64,000 nt of DNA from Candidatus Latescibacterota bacterium (GCA_965222605.1 OZ244960.1:3520001-3584000), one strand, 5' to 3'. Counted from the first letter of the stretch, positions 14,132 through 21,151 are shown. The notes: generated by a model not told the origin, from the sequence alone. Made by a program: numbers and translations.

Positions 14132-14503
14132 ATGCAATCTATTTATGTACAGGTCCCTGAAGATATTATACAAAATATCGTGCAGCAAATGTACGATGAT
14201 GGATATGTTTACGATAGTAAAAATGATTCTCAGTTTTTAAGTGATAGAGACCCTTTAATTGTAAAAATGTCGGATGGGGAATATAGAGAAGTAACTGCTT
14301 TACATTTACAAGAGGTTGTGGATGGCTTGATCGAAATCCAACTGGATCAAGCATTTAGAAAGTATAAAGAACAAAATGTGACATTGCCGATGTGGATGTA
14401 TAAGAGGTTTTTTCGAAAAAATATGTATGGATTGTATTGGGGTTTATTTATGTTTGCGATGGGTATTGCGATAGGTGTTTTATTTTCTCTGGATATACCG
14501 TAA
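14132..14503 (+). CDS. AT-rich hypothetical protein with C-terminal transmembrane helix
   Basis: RBS AGGAG; hydrophobic tail LYWGLFMFAMGIAIGVLFSL. Confidence 0.7.
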   Translation: MQSIYVQVPEDIIQNIVQQMYDDGYVYDSKNDSQFLSDRDPLIVKMSDGEYREVTALHLQEVVDGLIEIQLDQAFRKYKEQNVTLPMWMYKRFFRKNMYGLYWGLFMFAMGIAIGVLFSLDIP

Positions 14504-14526
14504 CCAGAAAAAGGAGTAGAGAAACC

Positions 14527-16866
14527 ATGTCTTACCAGATGCCACCCGAAGAACTCGCCGCGATTGTTGATGCGCCTCTAACACCTTCGTTTAGCATTGA
14601 TCCCACAAAGACAATGTTGCTGTTGATGCACCGTCCGGGCACACCGTCTATTGAAGAGGTGTCGCGGTCCGAGTTGCGTCTGGCAGGATTGCGCCTGGAT
14701 CCAGATGTCAATGGGCAAAGTCGCGTGGGATTTTACAATGGGCTGACGCTCAAGTGGATTGCCAATGGTCGTGAAATACCTGTGACGGGTTTGCCGCAAG
14801 ACGCGAAAATTGGACGGGCTTATTGGGCGCCCGATGGTCGGCGGTTTGCTTTTTCGGTGACGGGTGATAATGGGATTGATCTGTGGGTGGGCAATGCGAA
14901 GACGGGTCGGGCGCATCCGGTTGGCGATGTGAAATTGAATCAGGTGTTTGGCGGGGCAATCGTCTGGCTGCCCGATAGTTCGGGGCTGTTGGTGCGTGCG
15001 GTATGTGATGGTCGAGGCAATCCGCCCGGGGTGCCCCGCGTGCCCAAAGGTCCGGTGATACAGGAAAATGTGGGGGAACGGGCAGCACCATCGCGCACGT
15101 ATCAAGATTTGTTAAAGAATGCACATGATGAGTTGCTATTTGAATATTATGCCACTTCGCAGGTTGCACTTGTGCGCCTGAATGGCGATGTGAGACCTGT
15201 GGGTTCTCCCGGGTTGATTGGTCGCGCTGATCCGTCGCCAGATGGTCGTTATGTGCTGGTGTTGACTATTCACCGACCGTTTTCGTATCTGGTGCCTTCG
15301 TATCGTTTTCCAACAAAAGTAGCGATCTGGGATTTGGATGGGCGCGAGGTGCGCGAACTTGCTGATTTGCCATTGGCCGAATCTGTGCCGATTGCTTATG
15401 ATGCCGTGCCCGAAGGTGCGCGGTCATTTGGATGGCGCGCAGACGCGCCTGTGACCGTAACGTGGGTTGTGGCACAGGATGGCGGCGATCCCGAGGTGGA
15501 TATGGCGGTGCGGGATATTGTGTATGCGCTCGACGCGCCTTATGAGGGTGATGGGCGCGCGCTCATGTCGCTGGCGATGCGCTATGGTGGGTGTTCGTGG
15601 GGGACGGGTGATCTCGCGTTGGTTTCAGAACGCTGGTGGAAAACGCGGCGCGTGCGTACGTGGCGCATTCGCCCGGATGATTCGGACTTTGAACCACAGG
15701 TATTGTTTGACCGGTCGTGGGAAGATCGCTACAGCGATCCGGGCGCGCCGGTGTTCACGCGGTTGCCCAATGGTCGGTCTGTGTTGCTGACCGATGCGTC
15801 GCAACGCCATCTGTTTTTTGCAGGCGATGGTGCGTCGCCCAAAGGTGATCGCCCATTTTTGGATCGCTATGATCTGGAGACGGGCAAAGCAGAACGTCTC
15901 ATGCATTCTCAGGTGCCATTTTACGAGCGGCCAACGGTGATGATCGATGCCAATACGGTGTTGATGAGCCGGGAGGGCGTTGAGGAACCGACCAATTATT
16001 ATTTGCGGGATTTGGAGCGCAATGACATGCGGCAGCTCACGCATTTTGTTCATCCCATGCCGCAATTGAGAGCGGTACAGAAGTCGTTGATTCAGTATCG
16101 GCGCGAAGATGGGGTGCAATTGAATGGGACGTTGTATTTGCCGCCCGGATATAAAAACGACGATAGTCCACTGCCAGTGCTAATGTGGGCTTATCCCCGC
16201 GAATTTAAGAGTGCAGATGCCGCGGGTCAGGTGAAGGATTCTCCCTTTCGCTTTGTGCGTATCAGTCCGCATGGTGCGTTGCCTTTTTTGGCGCGGGGTT
16301 ATGCTGTGCTGGATGGTCCGGCGATGCCGATTGTGGGCGAGGGAGATAGTGAGGCAAATGATACCTACATCGCGCAACTTGCCGATAGTGCAAGGGCCGC
16401 GGTTGATGAGTTGGTGCGTCTGGGTGTGGCCGATCCCAAAAAAGTGGCGGTGGGGGGACATTCCTACGGCGGTTTTATGACGGCGAATTTGCTGGCACAC
16501 ACAGATTTGTTTTGCTGTGGTATTGCGCGCAGTGGCGCGTATAACCGCACGTTGACGCCTTTTGGTTTTCAGGCAGAAGAGCGCACGCTCTGGCAGGCAG
16601 CAGATATTTATGCGGCGATGTCTCCGTTTAATCATGTGCCCAAAATTAACGCGCCTTTGCTACTTATTCACGGCGAGGCGGACAATAATTCGGGCACGTT
16701 TCCCATGCAGAGCGAGCGATTTTACAATGCGCTCAAAGGACACGGCGTCATCTGTCGATTGGTGATGTTGCCGCATGAGAGTCACGGATACCGGGCGCGC
16801 GAGTCGATTATGCACGTTCTGTGGGAGATGTCAGAGTGGTTGGATAGATACGCTAAAAAGGAATAA
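14527..16866 (+). CDS. S9 family (prolyl oligopeptidase-like, glutamyl-type) peptidase
   Basis: GGHSYGG nucleophile; HGEADNNSGT and LPHESHGY triad motifs; start MSYQMPP after AAGGAG. Confidence 0.93.
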   Translation: MSYQMPPEELAAIVDAPLTPSFSIDPTKTMLLLMHRPGTPSIEEVSRSELRLAGLRLDPDVNGQSRVGFYNGLTLKWIANGREIPVTGLPQDAKIGRAYWAPDGRRFAFSVTGDNGIDLWVGNAKTGRAHPVGDVKLNQVFGGAIVWLPDSSGLLVRAVCDGRGNPPGVPRVPKGPVIQENVGERAAPSRTYQDLLKNAHDELLFEYYATSQVALVRLNGDVRPVGSPGLIGRADPSPDGRYVLVLTIHRPFSYLVPSYRFPTKVAIWDLDGREVRELADLPLAESVPIAYDAVPEGARSFGWRADAPVTVTWVVAQDGGDPEVDMAVRDIVYALDAPYEGDGRALMSLAMRYGGCSWGTGDLALVSERWWKTRRVRTWRIRPDDSDFEPQVLFDRSWEDRYSDPGAPVFTRLPNGRSVLLTDASQRHLFFAGDGASPKGDRPFLDRYDLETGKAERLMHSQVPFYERPTVMIDANTVLMSREGVEEPTNYYLRDLERNDMRQLTHFVHPMPQLRAVQKSLIQYRREDGVQLNGTLYLPPGYKNDDSPLPVLMWAYPREFKSADAAGQVKDSPFRFVRISPHGALPFLARGYAVLDGPAMPIVGEGDSEANDTYIAQLADSARAAVDELVRLGVADPKKVAVGGHSYGGFMTANLLAHTDLFCCGIARSGAYNRTLTPFGFQAEERTLWQAADIYAAMSPFNHVPKINAPLLLIHGEADNNSGTFPMQSERFYNALKGHGVICRLVMLPHESHGYRARESIMHVLWEMSEWLDRYAKKE

Positions 16867-16921
16867 AAATTCAAAAAAATGAATTTTTATTCTTGACTTG
16901 TGTTTGTTTCCGGTATATTTT
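16858..16921 (+). promoter_or_regulatory. Tandem ARG boxes overlapping the -35 of the argR promoter
   Basis: AAGGAATAAAAATTCAAA (16858-16875) and AATGAATTTTTATTCTTG (16878-16895) fit WNTGAATWWWWATTCANW with 2-bp spacing; TTGACT at 16893-16898. Confidence 0.8.
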
Positions 16922-16993
16922 TTTCCTCATATCATCTTTGAATAGGAACCACAATGCAGGTAAAAGTACCTCAGAACATGGAGGGGGAAAATT

Positions 16994-17650
16994 ATGAGTG
17001 CGAAAAAAGAACGGCAGCAGAAAATTTTAGAACTGATTACTGAGGGATCTATCACACGTCAAGAAGAACTGAATGCTGCGTTGCAGGAAGTTGGAATTTC
17101 GACTACACAATCGACCCTATCAAAAGATATTAAGGAACTGGGTATTGCAAAAGCACCTGATGGTGAAGGGGGCTTCCGATATCAAATTCCAGGGATTCCA
17201 ATAGGTTCAGAACGGATGTCGTTACATGGTGATGACCTGTTGAGGCGCGAGTTGCAAGACTTTGTTATTGGTGTAGAAGCGGTGGCTCATACGCTGATTT
17301 TGAAGACTATTACTGGACATGCTCAGGGTGTTTGTGAAGCAATTGATCAAGCAGAATGGGCAGAAGTTGCTGGAACGCTCGCTGGAGAAAACACCATTTT
17401 TATTATTTGTCGCTCATCAGAAGCATGTCAGGATCTTGAAAAGAGTATTTGGTTACAAATGAAAACTTGGTCGACAAATCAATCAGTAAGCGGTGTTGGG
17501 ATAAATTCTGTAAGTAATGAAAACCCATCAGTAGCACGTAAAGAAGGTATTCTGGTCATTCGTTCACAAGCACCTCAACCTCTTGGGAATACGTTGAAAC
17601 AAAGTCGCGAAGCACGGTTGAAAGGGCTGGCGGAGAAATCCGGTTTATGA
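16994..17650 (+). CDS. argR: Arginine repressor ArgR with about 60-aa C-terminal extension
   Basis: KKERQQKILELI...QEEL...TQSTLSKDIKELG; LKTITGHAQ...GTLAGENTIFI. Confidence 0.9.
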   Translation: MSAKKERQQKILELITEGSITRQEELNAALQEVGISTTQSTLSKDIKELGIAKAPDGEGGFRYQIPGIPIGSERMSLHGDDLLRRELQDFVIGVEAVAHTLILKTITGHAQGVCEAIDQAEWAEVAGTLAGENTIFIICRSSEACQDLEKSIWLQMKTWSTNQSVSGVGINSVSNENPSVARKEGILVIRSQAPQPLGNTLKQSREARLKGLAEKSGL

Positions 17651-18081
17651 AAATTTTGTTGGATACATCTGTGCTTATCGCCGCGATGGTTGAAGCCCAC
17701 CCCAATCACGACCGAGCACTGATGTGGTTAAAACGCGCACGGCAAGACGATGTTTCTGCATATATTGCGGCTCATACACTTGCCGAGTTGTATGCTGTTT
17801 TAACGCGTTTGCCAGTACAACCACGCATTTCTTCGGCCATTGCACTGCAACTTATCCAGGAAAATGTCGTCTCTGTATTTGAAATAATTGCATCAGACGG
17901 CGATGAATACAAAACGCTTTTGGTGCATCTCGCGCAACAAGGCATCACAGGTGGTGCAACCTACGATGCTCTGATTGCACATACAGCTTACCGGATTCGG
18001 GTTGATCATTTGATAACTTTTAATGAACGAGATTTTAAGGCTGTTTACCCAGATATTTCAGATCAGATTTTAGTACCTTGA
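17647..18081 (+). CDS. vapC: PIN-domain (VapC-type) toxin
   Basis: ILLDTSVL, LAELYAVLT, GATYDALI, TFNERDF: all acidic PIN positions present; ATGA overlap with argR. Confidence 0.9.
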   Translation: MKILLDTSVLIAAMVEAHPNHDRALMWLKRARQDDVSAYIAAHTLAELYAVLTRLPVQPRISSAIALQLIQENVVSVFEIIASDGDEYKTLLVHLAQQGITGGATYDALIAHTAYRIRVDHLITFNERDFKAVYPDISDQILVP

Positions 18082-18093
18082 AAGGGTTGTGCG

Positions 18094-19026
18094 GTGATTA
18101 AAATAGGTATTTACGGCGATACCGGGATGGTGGGGCAGGAACTCCAAAAGGTTTTGAAACACCACGATCGGGCAAATATCGCGTTTCGACAAAATTCAAG
18201 GCGTCGGGAAGGCAATTTGGCCGATTGCGATGTGGTGTTTTTGGCGACAAAAGATCCCGAGTCGATGACGTTTGCGCCCGAGGCACTGGCCGCAGGTGCG
18301 AGGGTTATCGATATGAGCGGTGCTTTTCGGTTGCCTAAAGAGGCGTTTGAAAAGGGTTATGGTCTGGCGCATACGGCGTCTGAGTTGCTCAAAGAAGCGG
18401 TTTATGGCATGCCCGCTTTGTTTGCCAAACATATTGCCAAAGCGCGTTTGGTGGGCAATCCGGGTTGTTATCCCACGAGTGTTATTTTGTCTCTGTATCC
18501 CCTCAAATCACTCGTGCAGGGGGAAGCGACGATTGTGGCGACTTCGGGCAATTCGGGTGCGCGAGCCGAGGTGGAGGATGTGTCAAATGAGATTGCGTAT
18601 AGCTATGGCAAGCGACACAAACATGTGCCCGAGATGGTGTTGTATTCGGGTTTTGAAGTGAATTTTACGCCTATTGTGCTGCGGTCGGTATTTGCGGGTA
18701 TCAATGCAAATATTCGAATAGAACTGGTTGATGAGTTGAAAGCGCTGGCGAATGAAGATGCCGCAGCGCAGTTGCGCGAGACCATTGCAAGTGCTTATGG
18801 CTCGGACGATCTGGTGCAGGTGGTCGAAGATTCCGACGCGCATTGGTGGGGTACGCGCGATGTGGTGGATACGCATAAACTGATTATCAAGTTGGGCGTT
18901 GATGACGGCTTTGCTTATATCAATGCCCTGGAAGACAATTTGCAAAAAGGCGCGGCTACTCAGGCTGTGGAAAATATGAATTTGATGCAGGCTCTGCCGC
19001 GGCTTTTTGGGATTACCAAAACGTGA
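18094..19026 (+). CDS. argC: N-acetyl-gamma-glutamyl-phosphate reductase
   Basis: GDTGMVG, VIDMSGAFRL, GNPGCYPT, DNLQKGAATQAVENMN. Confidence 0.93.
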   Translation: MIKIGIYGDTGMVGQELQKVLKHHDRANIAFRQNSRRREGNLADCDVVFLATKDPESMTFAPEALAAGARVIDMSGAFRLPKEAFEKGYGLAHTASELLKEAVYGMPALFAKHIAKARLVGNPGCYPTSVILSLYPLKSLVQGEATIVATSGNSGARAEVEDVSNEIAYSYGKRHKHVPEMVLYSGFEVNFTPIVLRSVFAGINANIRIELVDELKALANEDAAAQLRETIASAYGSDDLVQVVEDSDAHWWGTRDVVDTHKLIIKLGVDDGFAYINALEDNLQKGAATQAVENMNLMQALPRLFGITKT

Positions 19027-19928
19027 TGGAGAAAACCTTGGATCACAATATAGTTCAAAAGGCTGAGATTTTGATTGAGGCATTTCCGTATATTCGCGCA
19101 TTTCGCAACAAAATTATTGTGGTGAAATACGGCGGTAGCACACAGCCCGAAGAGGGCGGTTCCCCTACTATAATGGCCGATCTGGTGTTTATGGAGACCG
19201 TGGGTATGCGTCCTGTGGTTGTACACGGCGGGGGGAAGGATATTAACAGGCGTTTGGAAGCGTCGGGTATTGAATCGGAATGGGTCAATGGATTGCGGGT
19301 GACCGATAAGGCGTCGATGCAGGTAGTGGAAGATACGTTGTTTGGCGAGGTGAACAGGCGCATTGTCGATGGTCTGGAGATACTCGATGGACGCGCGCGC
19401 GGTATGTCGGCCAAAGACGCTGGCGTGATGTATGTGACGCGGCATTTTGCGACAGTAGAGAAGGAAGGCGGGAAGACCAGAGAGATCGATATCGGCTATG
19501 TTGGCGATGTCGCCCGAATTGATCCCGAACCCATCCGTTTGGCCTGTGAAGAAGGCATGATTCCCGTTATTTCGCCTGTTGGATTGGGGCCAGAGGGCGA
19601 GAGTTATAATGTGAATGCCGATACAGCGGCGGGTGAGATTGCGAGGGCACTGCAAGCGGAGAAGCTGGTGTTTTTAACGGATGTGAATGGCATTCGACGG
19701 TTTCCGGATGATCCGGATTCGCAGATTTCAACACTACATGTCAATGACGTGGAGATGCTGATTGAGAGAGGTATTGCCAGCGGGGGGATGATTCCCAAGT
19801 TGCGCGCGTGTGAACGTTCTGTGAAGGGCGGTGTTCACAAGACGCATATTATTGATGGCAGTGTTCCGCACGCGCTTTTGCTGGAGATTTTTACCCGCGA
19901 GGGTATTGGAACGCAAATTGTGCAGTAG
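19023..19928 (+). CDS. argB: Acetylglutamate kinase
   Basis: VVKYGG, VVHGGG, GLRVTD, YNVNADTAA, GGMIPKL. Confidence 0.95.
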   Translation: MMEKTLDHNIVQKAEILIEAFPYIRAFRNKIIVVKYGGSTQPEEGGSPTIMADLVFMETVGMRPVVVHGGGKDINRRLEASGIESEWVNGLRVTDKASMQVVEDTLFGEVNRRIVDGLEILDGRARGMSAKDAGVMYVTRHFATVEKEGGKTREIDIGYVGDVARIDPEPIRLACEEGMIPVISPVGLGPEGESYNVNADTAAGEIARALQAEKLVFLTDVNGIRRFPDDPDSQISTLHVNDVEMLIERGIASGGMIPKLRACERSVKGGVHKTHIIDGSVPHALLLEIFTREGIGTQIVQ

Positions 19929-19951: not shown

Positions 19952-21151
19952 ATGACGACTCGAGAAATTATTGATTTAGAACAGAAGTATATTCTGCAAA
20001 CCTATGGACGGCCCGAGTTTGTGCTGGAAAAGGGCGATGGGGTCCATATTGTGGATACGGACGGCAAGCATTATCTCGATTTTGTGAGTGGCTTGTCTGT
20101 CAATGCTCTGGGATATAATAATTCGATGATTCAAGAGGCTGCCAACGCGCAGTTGGGTAAGTTGATCCATGTTTCAAATTTGTATCACACGATTCCGGCG
20201 CCTCAACTGGCACAGTTGTTGTGCGAGCATTCGTTTGCAGATCGCGTGTTTTTCTGCAATAGCGGAACAGAGTCTATCGAGGCTGCGCTGAAGTTTGCGC
20301 GCAAGTGGGGGTACAAGAATTTTGAAGATGCGCCCAAGAATAAAATTATTGCGATGAATAATTCTTTTCACGGGCGAACGTATGGCGGGATTTCTGCGAC
20401 GGGTCAACCCAGATATCATCAGGGATTTGGGCCGATGTTGCCGGGTATTGAATTTGCCGATTTGAACGATTTGGAGTCGGTGGAGAAGCTGGCAGATGGC
20501 CAGACGGTGGCTGTTTTGCTGGAGCCGCTACAGGCAGAAGGGGGTATTCACTCGTCAGATCCGGAATTTTTGGAAGGTGTGCGCGCCCTGTGCGATGAGA
20601 TGAAGATGTTGTTGATTTTCGACGAGATTCAGTGTGGTTTGGGGCGGGCTGGTTCGCTGTTTTGCTACGAGCAGTACGGTGTGGCGCCAGATATTATGAC
20701 GCTTGCCAAACCCTTAGCTGGCGGGTTGCCGATTGGGGCGACACTTGTGACGCAGGATGTGGCCGATGCGGTGGAGCCGGGGGATCATGCCGCGACGTTT
20801 GGGGCGCATCCCGTGTCTTGTGCGGTGGCGATTGAGGTATTTAAGACGATATCTGATCCCGCATTTATTGCGGGTATAGAAGAGAAGAGTGCGTATTTGT
20901 TTGGGAAGCTGAATGCTTTGAAAGACAAACACGCCGGGAAGGTGACGGAAATTCGCGGCAGTGGGTTGATCGCGGGCGCGGTGCTGAAAGAGATATCGGC
21001 GGCGGATGCGATGAATGCGATTCGGGAAAATAATGATATTTTAGTATGTGTCGCAGGGCCAGATGTGGTGCGCTTTTTGCCACCACTGGTGATTGAGAAA
21101 GAACATATTGATGCGGCTGTGAATGCGCTGGATGAGTTTTTGTCCGATTAG
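19952..21151 (+). CDS. argD: Acetylornithine aminotransferase
   Basis: FFCNSGTE, SFHGRT, DEIQCGLGR, TLAKPLAGGLPIG. Confidence 0.93.
   Translation: MTTREIIDLEQKYILQTYGRPEFVLEKGDGVHIVDTDGKHYLDFVSGLSVNALGYNNSMIQEAANAQLGKLIHVSNLYHTIPAPQLAQLLCEHSFADRVFFCNSGTESIEAALKFARKWGYKNFEDAPKNKIIAMNNSFHGRTYGGISATGQPRYHQGFGPMLPGIEFADLNDLESVEKLADGQTVAVLLEPLQAEGGIHSSDPEFLEGVRALCDEMKMLLIFDEIQCGLGRAGSLFCYEQYGVAPDIMTLAKPLAGGLPIGATLVTQDVADAVEPGDHAATFGAHPVSCAVAIEVFKTISDPAFIAGIEEKSAYLFGKLNALKDKHAGKVTEIRGSGLIAGAVLKEISAADAMNAIRENNDILVCVAGPDVVRFLPPLVIEKEHIDAAVNALDEFLSD

Follow-up and report, generated by a model that had tools for sequence, protein, structure and literature searches.

Why is a PIN-domain ribonuclease encoded within an arginine operon, with no antitoxin gene of its own, and why is the arginine repressor encoded directly ahead of it longer than usual? 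These questions are raised by argR (positions 16994–17650, 218 aa) and the adjoining VapC-type PIN-domain gene (17647–18081, 144 aa), which lie, like all features described here, on the plus strand of a 64,000-nucleotide stretch of Candidatus Latescibacterota DNA (GCA_965222605.1 OZ244960.1:3520001-3584000, hereafter the window) from an uncultured bacterium of soil or sediment. An earlier reading made from this DNA alone (the sequence-only reading) had proposed that ArgR replaced the DNA-binding domain of a VapB antitoxin. Our analysis points in the same direction: with a probability of about 0.8, the tail of ArgR is the cognate antitoxin part of this PIN protein, and the two genes form a chimeric type II toxin-antitoxin pair inside the arginine operon, with ArgR as the DNA-binding part of the antitoxin and the PIN protein as a putative toxin. 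Open reading frame (ORF) calls confirmed the gene order that had been described, ARG boxes-argR-PIN-argC-argB-argD, as well as the ATGA at 17647–17650 in which the argR stop codon overlaps the PIN start.

The first 152 residues of the repressor (16994–17449) correspond to ArgR. Pfam places the winged-helix DNA-binding domain (Arg_repressor, PF01316) at residues 4–66 with an expectation value (E) of 1.7e-18 and the oligomerisation and arginine-binding domain (Arg_repressor_C, PF02863) at residues 87–152 (E 9.7e-22), and residues 4–148 align with AhrC 1f9n (E 4.9e-26) and ArgR 1b4a (E 1.9e-22). The NCBIfam model TIGR01529 (argR_whole) is narrowly missed, at 127.7 bits against a cut-off of 130.45. 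This protein is the only ArgR match of the genome and is indeed longer than usual, given that ordinary ArgR proteins of the same genus have 161–163 aa. Pfam recognizes no domain in residues 153–218, and a search with the tail alone returned no match at E ≤ 1. The unusual reading GENT in place of the GDDT motif, whose two Asp residues have a role in arginine binding, had been remarked upon before. GENT is present at residues 131–134 and aligns with the GDDT of AhrC 1f9n and ArgR 1b4a; it also occurs in all 24 relatives in which the motif region was found, tailless ones included, and is thus a lineage-wide trait that says nothing particular about the fusion.

The nature of the tail emerges from the genes that precede PIN homologues elsewhere. 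A contig scan for PIN relatives returned 11 loci, comprising two sister species, five complete PINs from other phyla (37–58% identity) and four loci that were set aside, two of them with 25–27% identity and another type of upstream ORF and two with PIN fragments. From a metagenome scan that yielded 569 PIN relatives the best 80 were kept, which together with the five genome loci gave 85 loci with PIN homologues in other phyla at 35–59% identity; a second contig scan with the PIN alignment added no new loci. At 84 of these 85 loci a same-strand upstream ORF ends at the PIN start, and the remaining locus has only 70 nt of upstream DNA. The antitoxins encoded there are about 90 aa long and mostly of the AbrB/MazE type: among 72 unique upstream ORFs, with four incomplete ones dropped from the Pfam and alignment sets, Pfam assigned 58 to MazE/AbrB (PF04014, E ≤ 0.01), four to DUF2281, one to ParD and one to an AF2212-like family, leaving eight with no assignment. 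Whatever the N-terminal domain, the 82 upstream ORFs kept for profile building, after removal of two that lack it and are probably out of frame, share one C-terminal module of about 43 aa, in which a Gly-hydrophobic-Leu-Val strand is accompanied by an R-E-E-R-like stretch containing an invariant Arg.

The same module forms the end of ArgR (residues 175–218 and the stop codon, 17516–17650), as indicated by BLASTP, profile and profile-profile comparisons. BLASTP of the ArgR tail against two such antitoxins gave E 6e-7 (ArgR residues 168–216) and 2e-4. A profile built from 76 unique 50-residue foreign tails, with zero ArgR fusions among them, was searched unfiltered against the 121,402 stop-to-stop ORFs of at least 30 aa of this genome, and the argR ORF was its sole match (E 2.3e-9, 39 bits, residues 176–216), the next hit being at E 3.3. 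In the reciprocal direction, a profile of four ArgR tails matched 25 of the 84 upstream ORFs at E ≤ 1e-3, rising to 31 at E ≤ 0.01; within the genome it matched no other ORF, the next best having E 0.16. In an hhalign comparison with 31 full-length AbrB-type antitoxins, the C-terminal region of ArgR aligned over 43 columns with 97.4% probability (E 1e-11), pairing ArgR residues 175–217 with columns 57–99 of 103, that is, with everything behind the AbrB domain; no AbrB remnant was detectable by hhalign in ArgR residues 153–174, the linker (17450–17515). The residues most conserved in 67 foreign antitoxins are retained, namely R205 (67 of 67), V188 (65 of 67), R208 (61 of 67) and G185 (48 of 67), and so are K183, L187 and E206 of the module.

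These comparisons bear out what the sequence-only reading had suggested, namely that the tail, which it had quoted exactly for residues 180–218, resembles the toxin-binding C-terminus of AbrB/MazE-type VapB antitoxins, and they agree with its proposal of a domain replacement, since the homology covers exactly the part that follows the AbrB domain. No other source of an antitoxin was apparent. The ORF listing shows no separate small antitoxin ORF at the argR-PIN locus, as had been stated, and the 76-tail profile detects no second copy of the module in the genome. A word-based protein search for the tail gave no candidates among short proteins and four matches among proteins of near length, all of them ArgR fusions. 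With no second tail module and no second PIN of the subfamily, the ArgR tail is the only candidate antitoxin.

The PIN protein (PF01850, E 3.1e-16) looks like an intact VapC, its toxicity remaining putative. A PDB sequence search with a PIN profile returned no VapC at E < 0.01, with one spurious match to a cohesin loader, so that a fold search was needed to reach a solved VapC. The AlphaFold2 (AF2) model of the protein has a predicted local distance difference test score (pLDDT) of 96.5, and its best Foldseek matches in the PDB are VapC toxins, led by M. tuberculosis VapC26 (5x3t_B, E 2.7e-6, template modelling (TM) score 0.74) and including 7vwo_A (TM 0.79), R. felis VapC2, Shigella VapC and FitB; the scores of the NCBIfam VapC-family models are below their cut-offs. 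All the acidic catalytic positions that had been reported as kept are present (D6, E47, D107 and D129), and so is N126. Across 66 aligned members of the subfamily, D6, E47 and D107 are found in 66 of 66 and N126 in 61; at position 129, 36 members have D, as does the window's copy, and 27 have H. In the C. crescentus VapBC1 study (PMC5389673), the active-site set of VapC1 is given as Asp6/Glu40/Asp95/Asn113/Asp116; from the matching order and N-x-x-D spacing we infer that the five residues of the PIN protein correspond to this set. Of the 27 PIN matches in the genome, no other belongs to the subfamily (203 bits for this one, 40 for the next). Further invariant or nearly invariant positions are H18 (66 of 66), H43 (65 of 66) and Y49, T53, P56 and G102 (66 of 66 each), making the conserved residue set of this subfamily unusually His-rich for a VapC. 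Most of the 27 PIN loci have upstream partners of 70–107 aa; five have large upstream ORFs (246, 330, 453, 465 and 492 aa), three of which overlap the PIN start by 1–4 nt.

A model of the complex, which had been suggested as a check on the proposal, supports binding of the tail to the PIN protein in a manner that would cover the active site. The PIN protein (66-row alignment) and a 46-residue tail (71-row alignment) were modelled in three runs with three controls, and the interaction prediction score from aligned errors (ipSAE) had a median of 0.74 over the three runs, compared with 0.00 for the best control. The runs share at least 96% of contacts, with a partner pLDDT of at least 72. The tightest predicted contacts join tail residues 186–191 with PIN residues 13–17, 21, 25, 28, 57, 61 and 68–73, and the interface further includes PIN T7, E47, Y106 and N126 and tail residues 186–198 and 204–209, with R205 and R208. 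In C. crescentus VapBC1, residues of VapB with a positive charge are described as reaching into the active site (PMC5389673).

The fusion itself is genuine and not an assembly artefact. Logan contigs from three runs of three studies span the region from 16855/16870 to 18133 with zero indels, differing from the window by 0 (run X1, which may be the source sample), 10 (X3) and 26 (X4) substitutions, and under the substitutions of X3 and X4 both the argR and the PIN frames stay open. The same open argR-tail frame is found in three further genomes, and public clusters of the fused protein with 6 and 17 members, drawn from many assemblies, contain exclusively proteins of 218 or 231 aa. A stop codon or frameshift at the junction, which the sequence-only reading had named as a result that would speak against it, is thus found neither in the three runs nor in the sister genomes. 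In runs X1, X3 and X4, more abundant contigs connect the ARG-box region and the beginning of argR with argC through different intervening sequence, skipping the tail and the PIN gene; these are relatives with an ordinary argR in the same samples.

Taken together, the repressor consists of an ArgR with complete DNA-binding and oligomerisation domains, a linker of about 22 residues and a module of about 43 residues homologous to the toxin-binding part of VapB, and we propose that the translationally coupled next gene would encode its cognate VapC (PIN) ribonuclease. The tail would wrap around the PIN protein, with a beta-strand at about residues 186–191 lying on the PIN helices and R205 and R208 placed near the acidic active site, such that the ribonuclease would be kept off. 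The genes argR, vapC and argCBD would be transcribed from one promoter overlapped by two ARG boxes, and with a single promoter under these boxes ArgR would repress the arginine genes, itself and the toxin.

The operator was located with the pattern TGAATWWWWATTCA, which we take to be the ARG-box core, allowing at most one mismatch. Within the 64-kb window it matches only at 16860–16873 (box 1, GGAATAAAAATTCA, one mismatch) and 16880–16893 (box 2, TGAATTTTTATTCT), 20 bp apart from centre to centre, and two or more matches arose in 0 of 100 shuffles. The two boxes are the sole tandem pair among 9 single matches genome-wide. Box 2 abuts the −35 element of a predicted sigma-70-like promoter found by a consensus scan (TTGACT-17 nt-TATTTT, 16893–16921). 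Both boxes and the promoter are conserved in 11 of 11 aligned genomes of the genus whether the tail is present or not, indicating that control of argR-argCBD by ArgR is ancestral and that the toxin was placed under it. To judge from the gene order and the ARG boxes, arginine would govern toxin synthesis. The seven other ARG-box-like matches of the genome lie at or in mraW, dnaN, thyA, an IS transposase gene, a PhyH-family gene, an AbiJ-like gene and unnamed ORFs; since none of these loci is an arginine gene, a regulon could not be outlined. Downstream of the PIN gene the operon continues with argC (N-acetyl-gamma-glutamyl-phosphate reductase, 18094–19026, identified by Pfam and NCBIfam), argB (acetylglutamate kinase family, 19023–19928, PF00696, E 7e-43) and argD (class-III aminotransferase, 19952–21151, PF00202, E 2.8e-112).

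Between promoter and start codon lies a 5′ leader (16922–16993) with a GGAGG at 16980–16984, 9 nt upstream of the argR ATG. It has no Rfam match, the best being one at E 0.47, far below gathering, and its folding is no better than that of shuffles (z 0.07). About 50–60 nt of this leader, including the GGAGG, occur only in the PIN-bearing genomes, namely the present one (G000) and its sisters G015 and G017; in the other eight aligned genomes of the genus the argR ATG follows the −10 hexamer by about 8–10 nt, resembling a leaderless mRNA, and this holds also for G018, G010 and G016, which lost the PIN gene. Because the three leader-bearing genomes are close kin, the gain of the leader counts as one event and its correlation with the PIN gene has no statistical weight. 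One metatranscriptome run contains contigs from a near relative over 16970–17277, 17911–18084 and 18077–18138; contigs assembled from an RNA library are, however, no evidence of transcription or of one shared transcript.

How the fused gene arose and what became of it can be followed within the genus. An ArgR protein search covered 41 genomes, 21 of which, including G000, belong to the genus. Four of these have the long form (G000, G015, G017 and G018) and 14 an ordinary ArgR ending near residue 156; in G016 and G010 the ArgR match runs past residue 160 through a stop, and G008 has no match. The sister species G015 and G017 encode a 218-aa ArgR (87% and 85% identical) and a 144-aa PIN (95% and 94%) with the same ATGA overlap. 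In G018 the tail is open and the PIN gene has suffered an internal deletion of about 370 nt, leaving only its first few and last approximately 55 nt. In G010, argR stops after residue 162, the tail is absent and about 50 nt of the PIN gene remain; argR of G016 stops at the same codon, the PIN gene is absent and the tail is disrupted by indels. No PIN of this subfamily was found elsewhere in G018, G010 or G016, whose genomes are 97–99% complete. A fourth loss is represented by P0183, a 109-aa PIN variant found on 10 contigs, in which an in-frame deletion of residues 5–39 takes out the catalytic D6 and H18; its substitutions A64T and I65T match the X4 strain that carries a full PIN gene, suggesting that the toxin is polymorphic for inactivation within a population. 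The toxin has therefore been lost or crippled four times in close relatives (three species and a strain variant) by four different deletions. The most economical order of decay would place the loss of the toxin first, with the tail lost later in two lineages. Taxonomic labels disagree within this material, the sister genomes being named Candidatus Latescibacterota and an nr protein of an identical cluster Gemmatimonadetes/Gemmatimonadota bacterium.

The DNA alignment places the switch between the two forms at a single codon. Ordinary ArgR proteins of the genus end at aligned position 162, and at codon 163 (17480–17482) the four fused genes read CAA, G010 reads TAA and G016 reads TGA. A single-base change at the old stop position, between CAA and TAA, would thus switch, in either direction, between the fused and the unfused state. 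In a tree of ArgR and ArgC the genomes with a tail or its remnants form two well-supported trios, (G000,(G015,G017)) and (G016,(G018,G010)), with a poorly supported backbone (67); the approximately unbiased (AU) test does not reject all six as one clade (p 0.51), which does not show that they are one. The tree of 66 PINs places the ArgR-linked PINs as one clade nested among AbrB-linked ones, as expected if an AbrB domain had been exchanged for ArgR, and along this tree the N-terminal domain of the partner changes at least eight times, with labels assigned partly by eye. The sequence of events that we propose would begin with an AbrB-VapB/VapC cassette landing between argR and argC. The AbrB part would then have been lost and the argR stop at codon 163 changed to CAA, so that translation reads into the tail, after which several lineages would have lost the toxin and two of them subsequently the tail.

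Substitution patterns show that the PIN protein is under strong purifying selection, with a ratio of non-synonymous to synonymous rates (dN/dS, Nei-Gojobori) of 0.08–0.13, compared with 0.03–0.16 for the ArgR core. GC content at third codon positions (GC3) in the three PIN-bearing genomes is 0.31–0.34 in the core, 0.30 in linker and tail and 0.37 in the PIN gene; in the argR core of 17 other genomes of the genus it is 0.45–0.63, and in argC 0.53–0.58. Synonymous divergence between G000 and G018 is 0.86 in the tail, 0.60 in the linker and 2.26 in the core. The low GC3 and the low divergence of the tail hint that the unit may have moved between lineages of the genus by recombination.

Several observations weigh against the interpretation of the two genes as a chimeric toxin-antitoxin pair. 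The tail is constrained, but loosely: its dN/dS is 0.33–0.68, calculated from very few sites (G000 and G015, for example, show 4 synonymous and 7 non-synonymous differences) and indicating weaker constraint than in the core. G018, a 98% complete genome, retains an open tail with no PIN gene of this subfamily, so that an open tail alone is no proof of current function, and the four losses of the toxin among close relatives imply that the module is dispensable. An AF2 model of the full-length ArgR monomer, computed from a 15-row alignment with a mean pLDDT of 64, shows ordered ArgR domains (pLDDT 76–86), and residues 159–206 are not confidently folded (pLDDT < 50); the low values would fit an antitoxin that folds on binding and, equally, a meaningless extension. 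With respect to the complex, 116 of 157 solved complexes passed the ipSAE mark, as did 2 of 215 mismatched pairs, counts that apply only roughly because our own alignments were used, and since VapBC complexes have already been solved, the score may partly reflect likeness to them. The fifth active-site position is His in 27 of the 66 PIN relatives. Finally, ArgR is expected to form a trimer or hexamer and VapB a dimer, such that six tails would face VapC dimers.

Other explanations share parts of this evidence. The locus might be a selfish VapBC insertion followed by an accidental read-through fusion, in which the tail only keeps the toxin harmless, with no coupling to arginine and no benefit to the host, the module then being in the course of disappearing. 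We consider this rather unlikely, though it is far from fanciful: codon 163 is CAA in the fused genes compared with TAA or TGA in G010 and G016, at the position where an ordinary argR stops, the toxin was lost independently four times, the dN/dS of the tail is relaxed, low GC3 and a tail divergence of 0.86 against 2.26 for the core hint at transfer of a module, and the ARG boxes predate the fusion. This explanation differs from the chimeric pair solely in benefit and coupling, the tail being an antitoxin in both. Against it stand the intact arrangement in three species with ArgR proteins 85–87% identical, in which the PIN dN/dS is 0.08–0.13, and the position behind an ArgR-controlled promoter, where some dependence of expression on arginine would be hard to avoid. 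The repeated losses bear equally on the suggestion of the sequence-only reading that the toxin might make the arg operon "addictive", which they weaken.

Translation starting internally at Met156 might instead yield the tail as a small antitoxin on its own, functionally separate from ArgR despite the shared ORF. Met156 is present in four of four genes with an intact tail, replaced by Leu in G010 and deleted in G016. One Met retained in four close relatives is nevertheless weak evidence; no GGAGG-like site lies at the usual distance before the Met156 ATG, and bare tails occur among the 84 upstream ORFs only where contig ends cut them, rendering this explanation quite improbable. Smaller still is the likelihood that the PIN protein is a domesticated, non-toxic ribonuclease that ArgR recruits by means of its tail so that arg-operon transcripts are processed or degraded close to the operator. 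Its location within a biosynthetic operon and the strong purifying selection would suit such a role, and ArgR would anchor it to the promoter of the operon that encodes them both; yet all its relatives belong to ordinary two-gene pairs of a PIN and a small antitoxin, some of them on plasmids, the predicted cover of the active site (E47, N126) by the tail implies inhibition and not delivery, and repeated loss fits a toxin. To an assembly or frameshift artefact, in which argR would stop near residue 162 and be followed by a separate small gene, we assign a negligible chance. The stop of ordinary argR genes of the genus at aligned codon 163 would favour it, and it conflicts with the indel-free contigs of the three studies, the three further genomes with the same open frame, the uniform lengths in the public clusters, and a tail region that has neither a start codon nor a DNA-binding domain of its own.

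Compared with known systems, the chimeric pair proposed here resembles VapBC modules with an AbrB/MazE-type VapB in most respects. By sequence, the nearest VapBC is the pair WP_013159619.1/WP_013159618.1 of Allomeiothermus silvanus DSM 9946 plasmid pMESIL01; by fold, the nearest are M. tuberculosis VapBC26 (5x3t), R. felis VapBC2 (3zvk), Shigella VapBC and C. crescentus VapBC1. Shared features are a PIN toxin with a VapC fold and the D/E/D/N/D positions, an antitoxin gene directly upstream that overlaps the toxin start, and a homologous C-terminal antitoxin module with the invariant Arg, predicted to bind the toxin. In contrast to those modules, an entire ArgR of 162 aa, comprising a winged helix and an oligomerisation domain that binds a ligand, takes the place of the small dimeric AbrB domain, two ARG boxes form the operator instead of a palindrome specific to the toxin-antitoxin pair, and the pair constitutes genes 1 and 2 of a five-gene biosynthetic operon. 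A small dedicated antitoxin of about 70–100 aa (AbrB, RHH, Phd or HTH), as is typical of VapBC, is not what the locus encodes, the protein having 218 aa because its DNA-binding part is a complete ArgR. With AhrC (1f9n) and ArgR (1b4a) it shares both Pfam domains and an arg-operon promoter overlaid by tandem ARG boxes, and it departs from them in 56 extra C-terminal residues that hold the antitoxin module, in GENT for GDDT and in a TIGR01529 score just under the cut-off. The DUF2281-, ParD/RHH- and AF2212-like antitoxins of this PIN subfamily likewise join the same C-terminal module to different N-terminal domains; theirs are small, dedicated antitoxin domains, unlike the housekeeping, metabolite-sensing regulator found here.

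A search of 1.84 billion representative proteins with a tail profile returned 766 matches at E ≤ 1e-3. Nearly all of the best 150 are 44–140 aa long, and among the 26 longest of these 150 Pfam recognizes PF04014 in 13 and no domain in 12, the ArgR fusion being the only full-size regulator, a match that is partly by construction because this profile included ArgR tails. One public copy of the fusion is annotated as 'hypothetical protein' and its neighbour as 'type II toxin-antitoxin system VapC family toxin'. The main text of a 2009 survey of type II systems (Makarova et al., PMC2701414) names RHH, AbrB, PHD, COG2442, COG2886, COG2856 and MerR as PIN partners and describes fusions of COG2442 with a winged HTH; 'ArgR' occurs 0 times in that main text. 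Searches of the full-text literature outside subscription journals and supplements revealed no precedent for an ArgR-antitoxin fusion among the papers listed. These comparisons support the view that a VapBC pair with a full-size, metabolite-sensing ArgR as the DNA-binding part of its antitoxin, set in an arginine operon, would be new.

Exchange of small DNA-binding domains is familiar among type II antitoxins; a complete metabolite-sensing housekeeping repressor in that place is a different matter. If the pair works as we propose, expression of the toxin, and possibly its release, would be tied to one nutrient signal, and a defined ligand would allow a direct test of the long-debated connection of chromosomal toxin-antitoxin pairs with starvation physiology. 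A bolder extension, which we regard as speculative and unlikely, is that ArgR acts as an arginine-gated antitoxin, the arginine level deciding how much VapC is held, made or released through a hexamer with six tails whose assembly and binding to DNA are arginine-dependent, and that VapC dimers bridging the tails serve as a co-repressor. Gating of this kind would give the cell a growth brake specific for one amino acid and connected directly to the protein that senses it, and a co-repressor role of VapC dimers would alter the binding of ArgR to operators across its regulon. Within one genus, an evolutionary series runs from the ordinary gene through the fused gene with toxin and the fused gene without toxin to a gene reverted by a stop at the old position, and illustrates how chimeras of this type come about and decay.

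Upstream of the ARG boxes lies a gene (14437–16866) for an 809-aa S9-family prolyl-oligopeptidase-like protein with a PD40 repeat, the stop codon of which (16864–16866) falls within ARG box 1.

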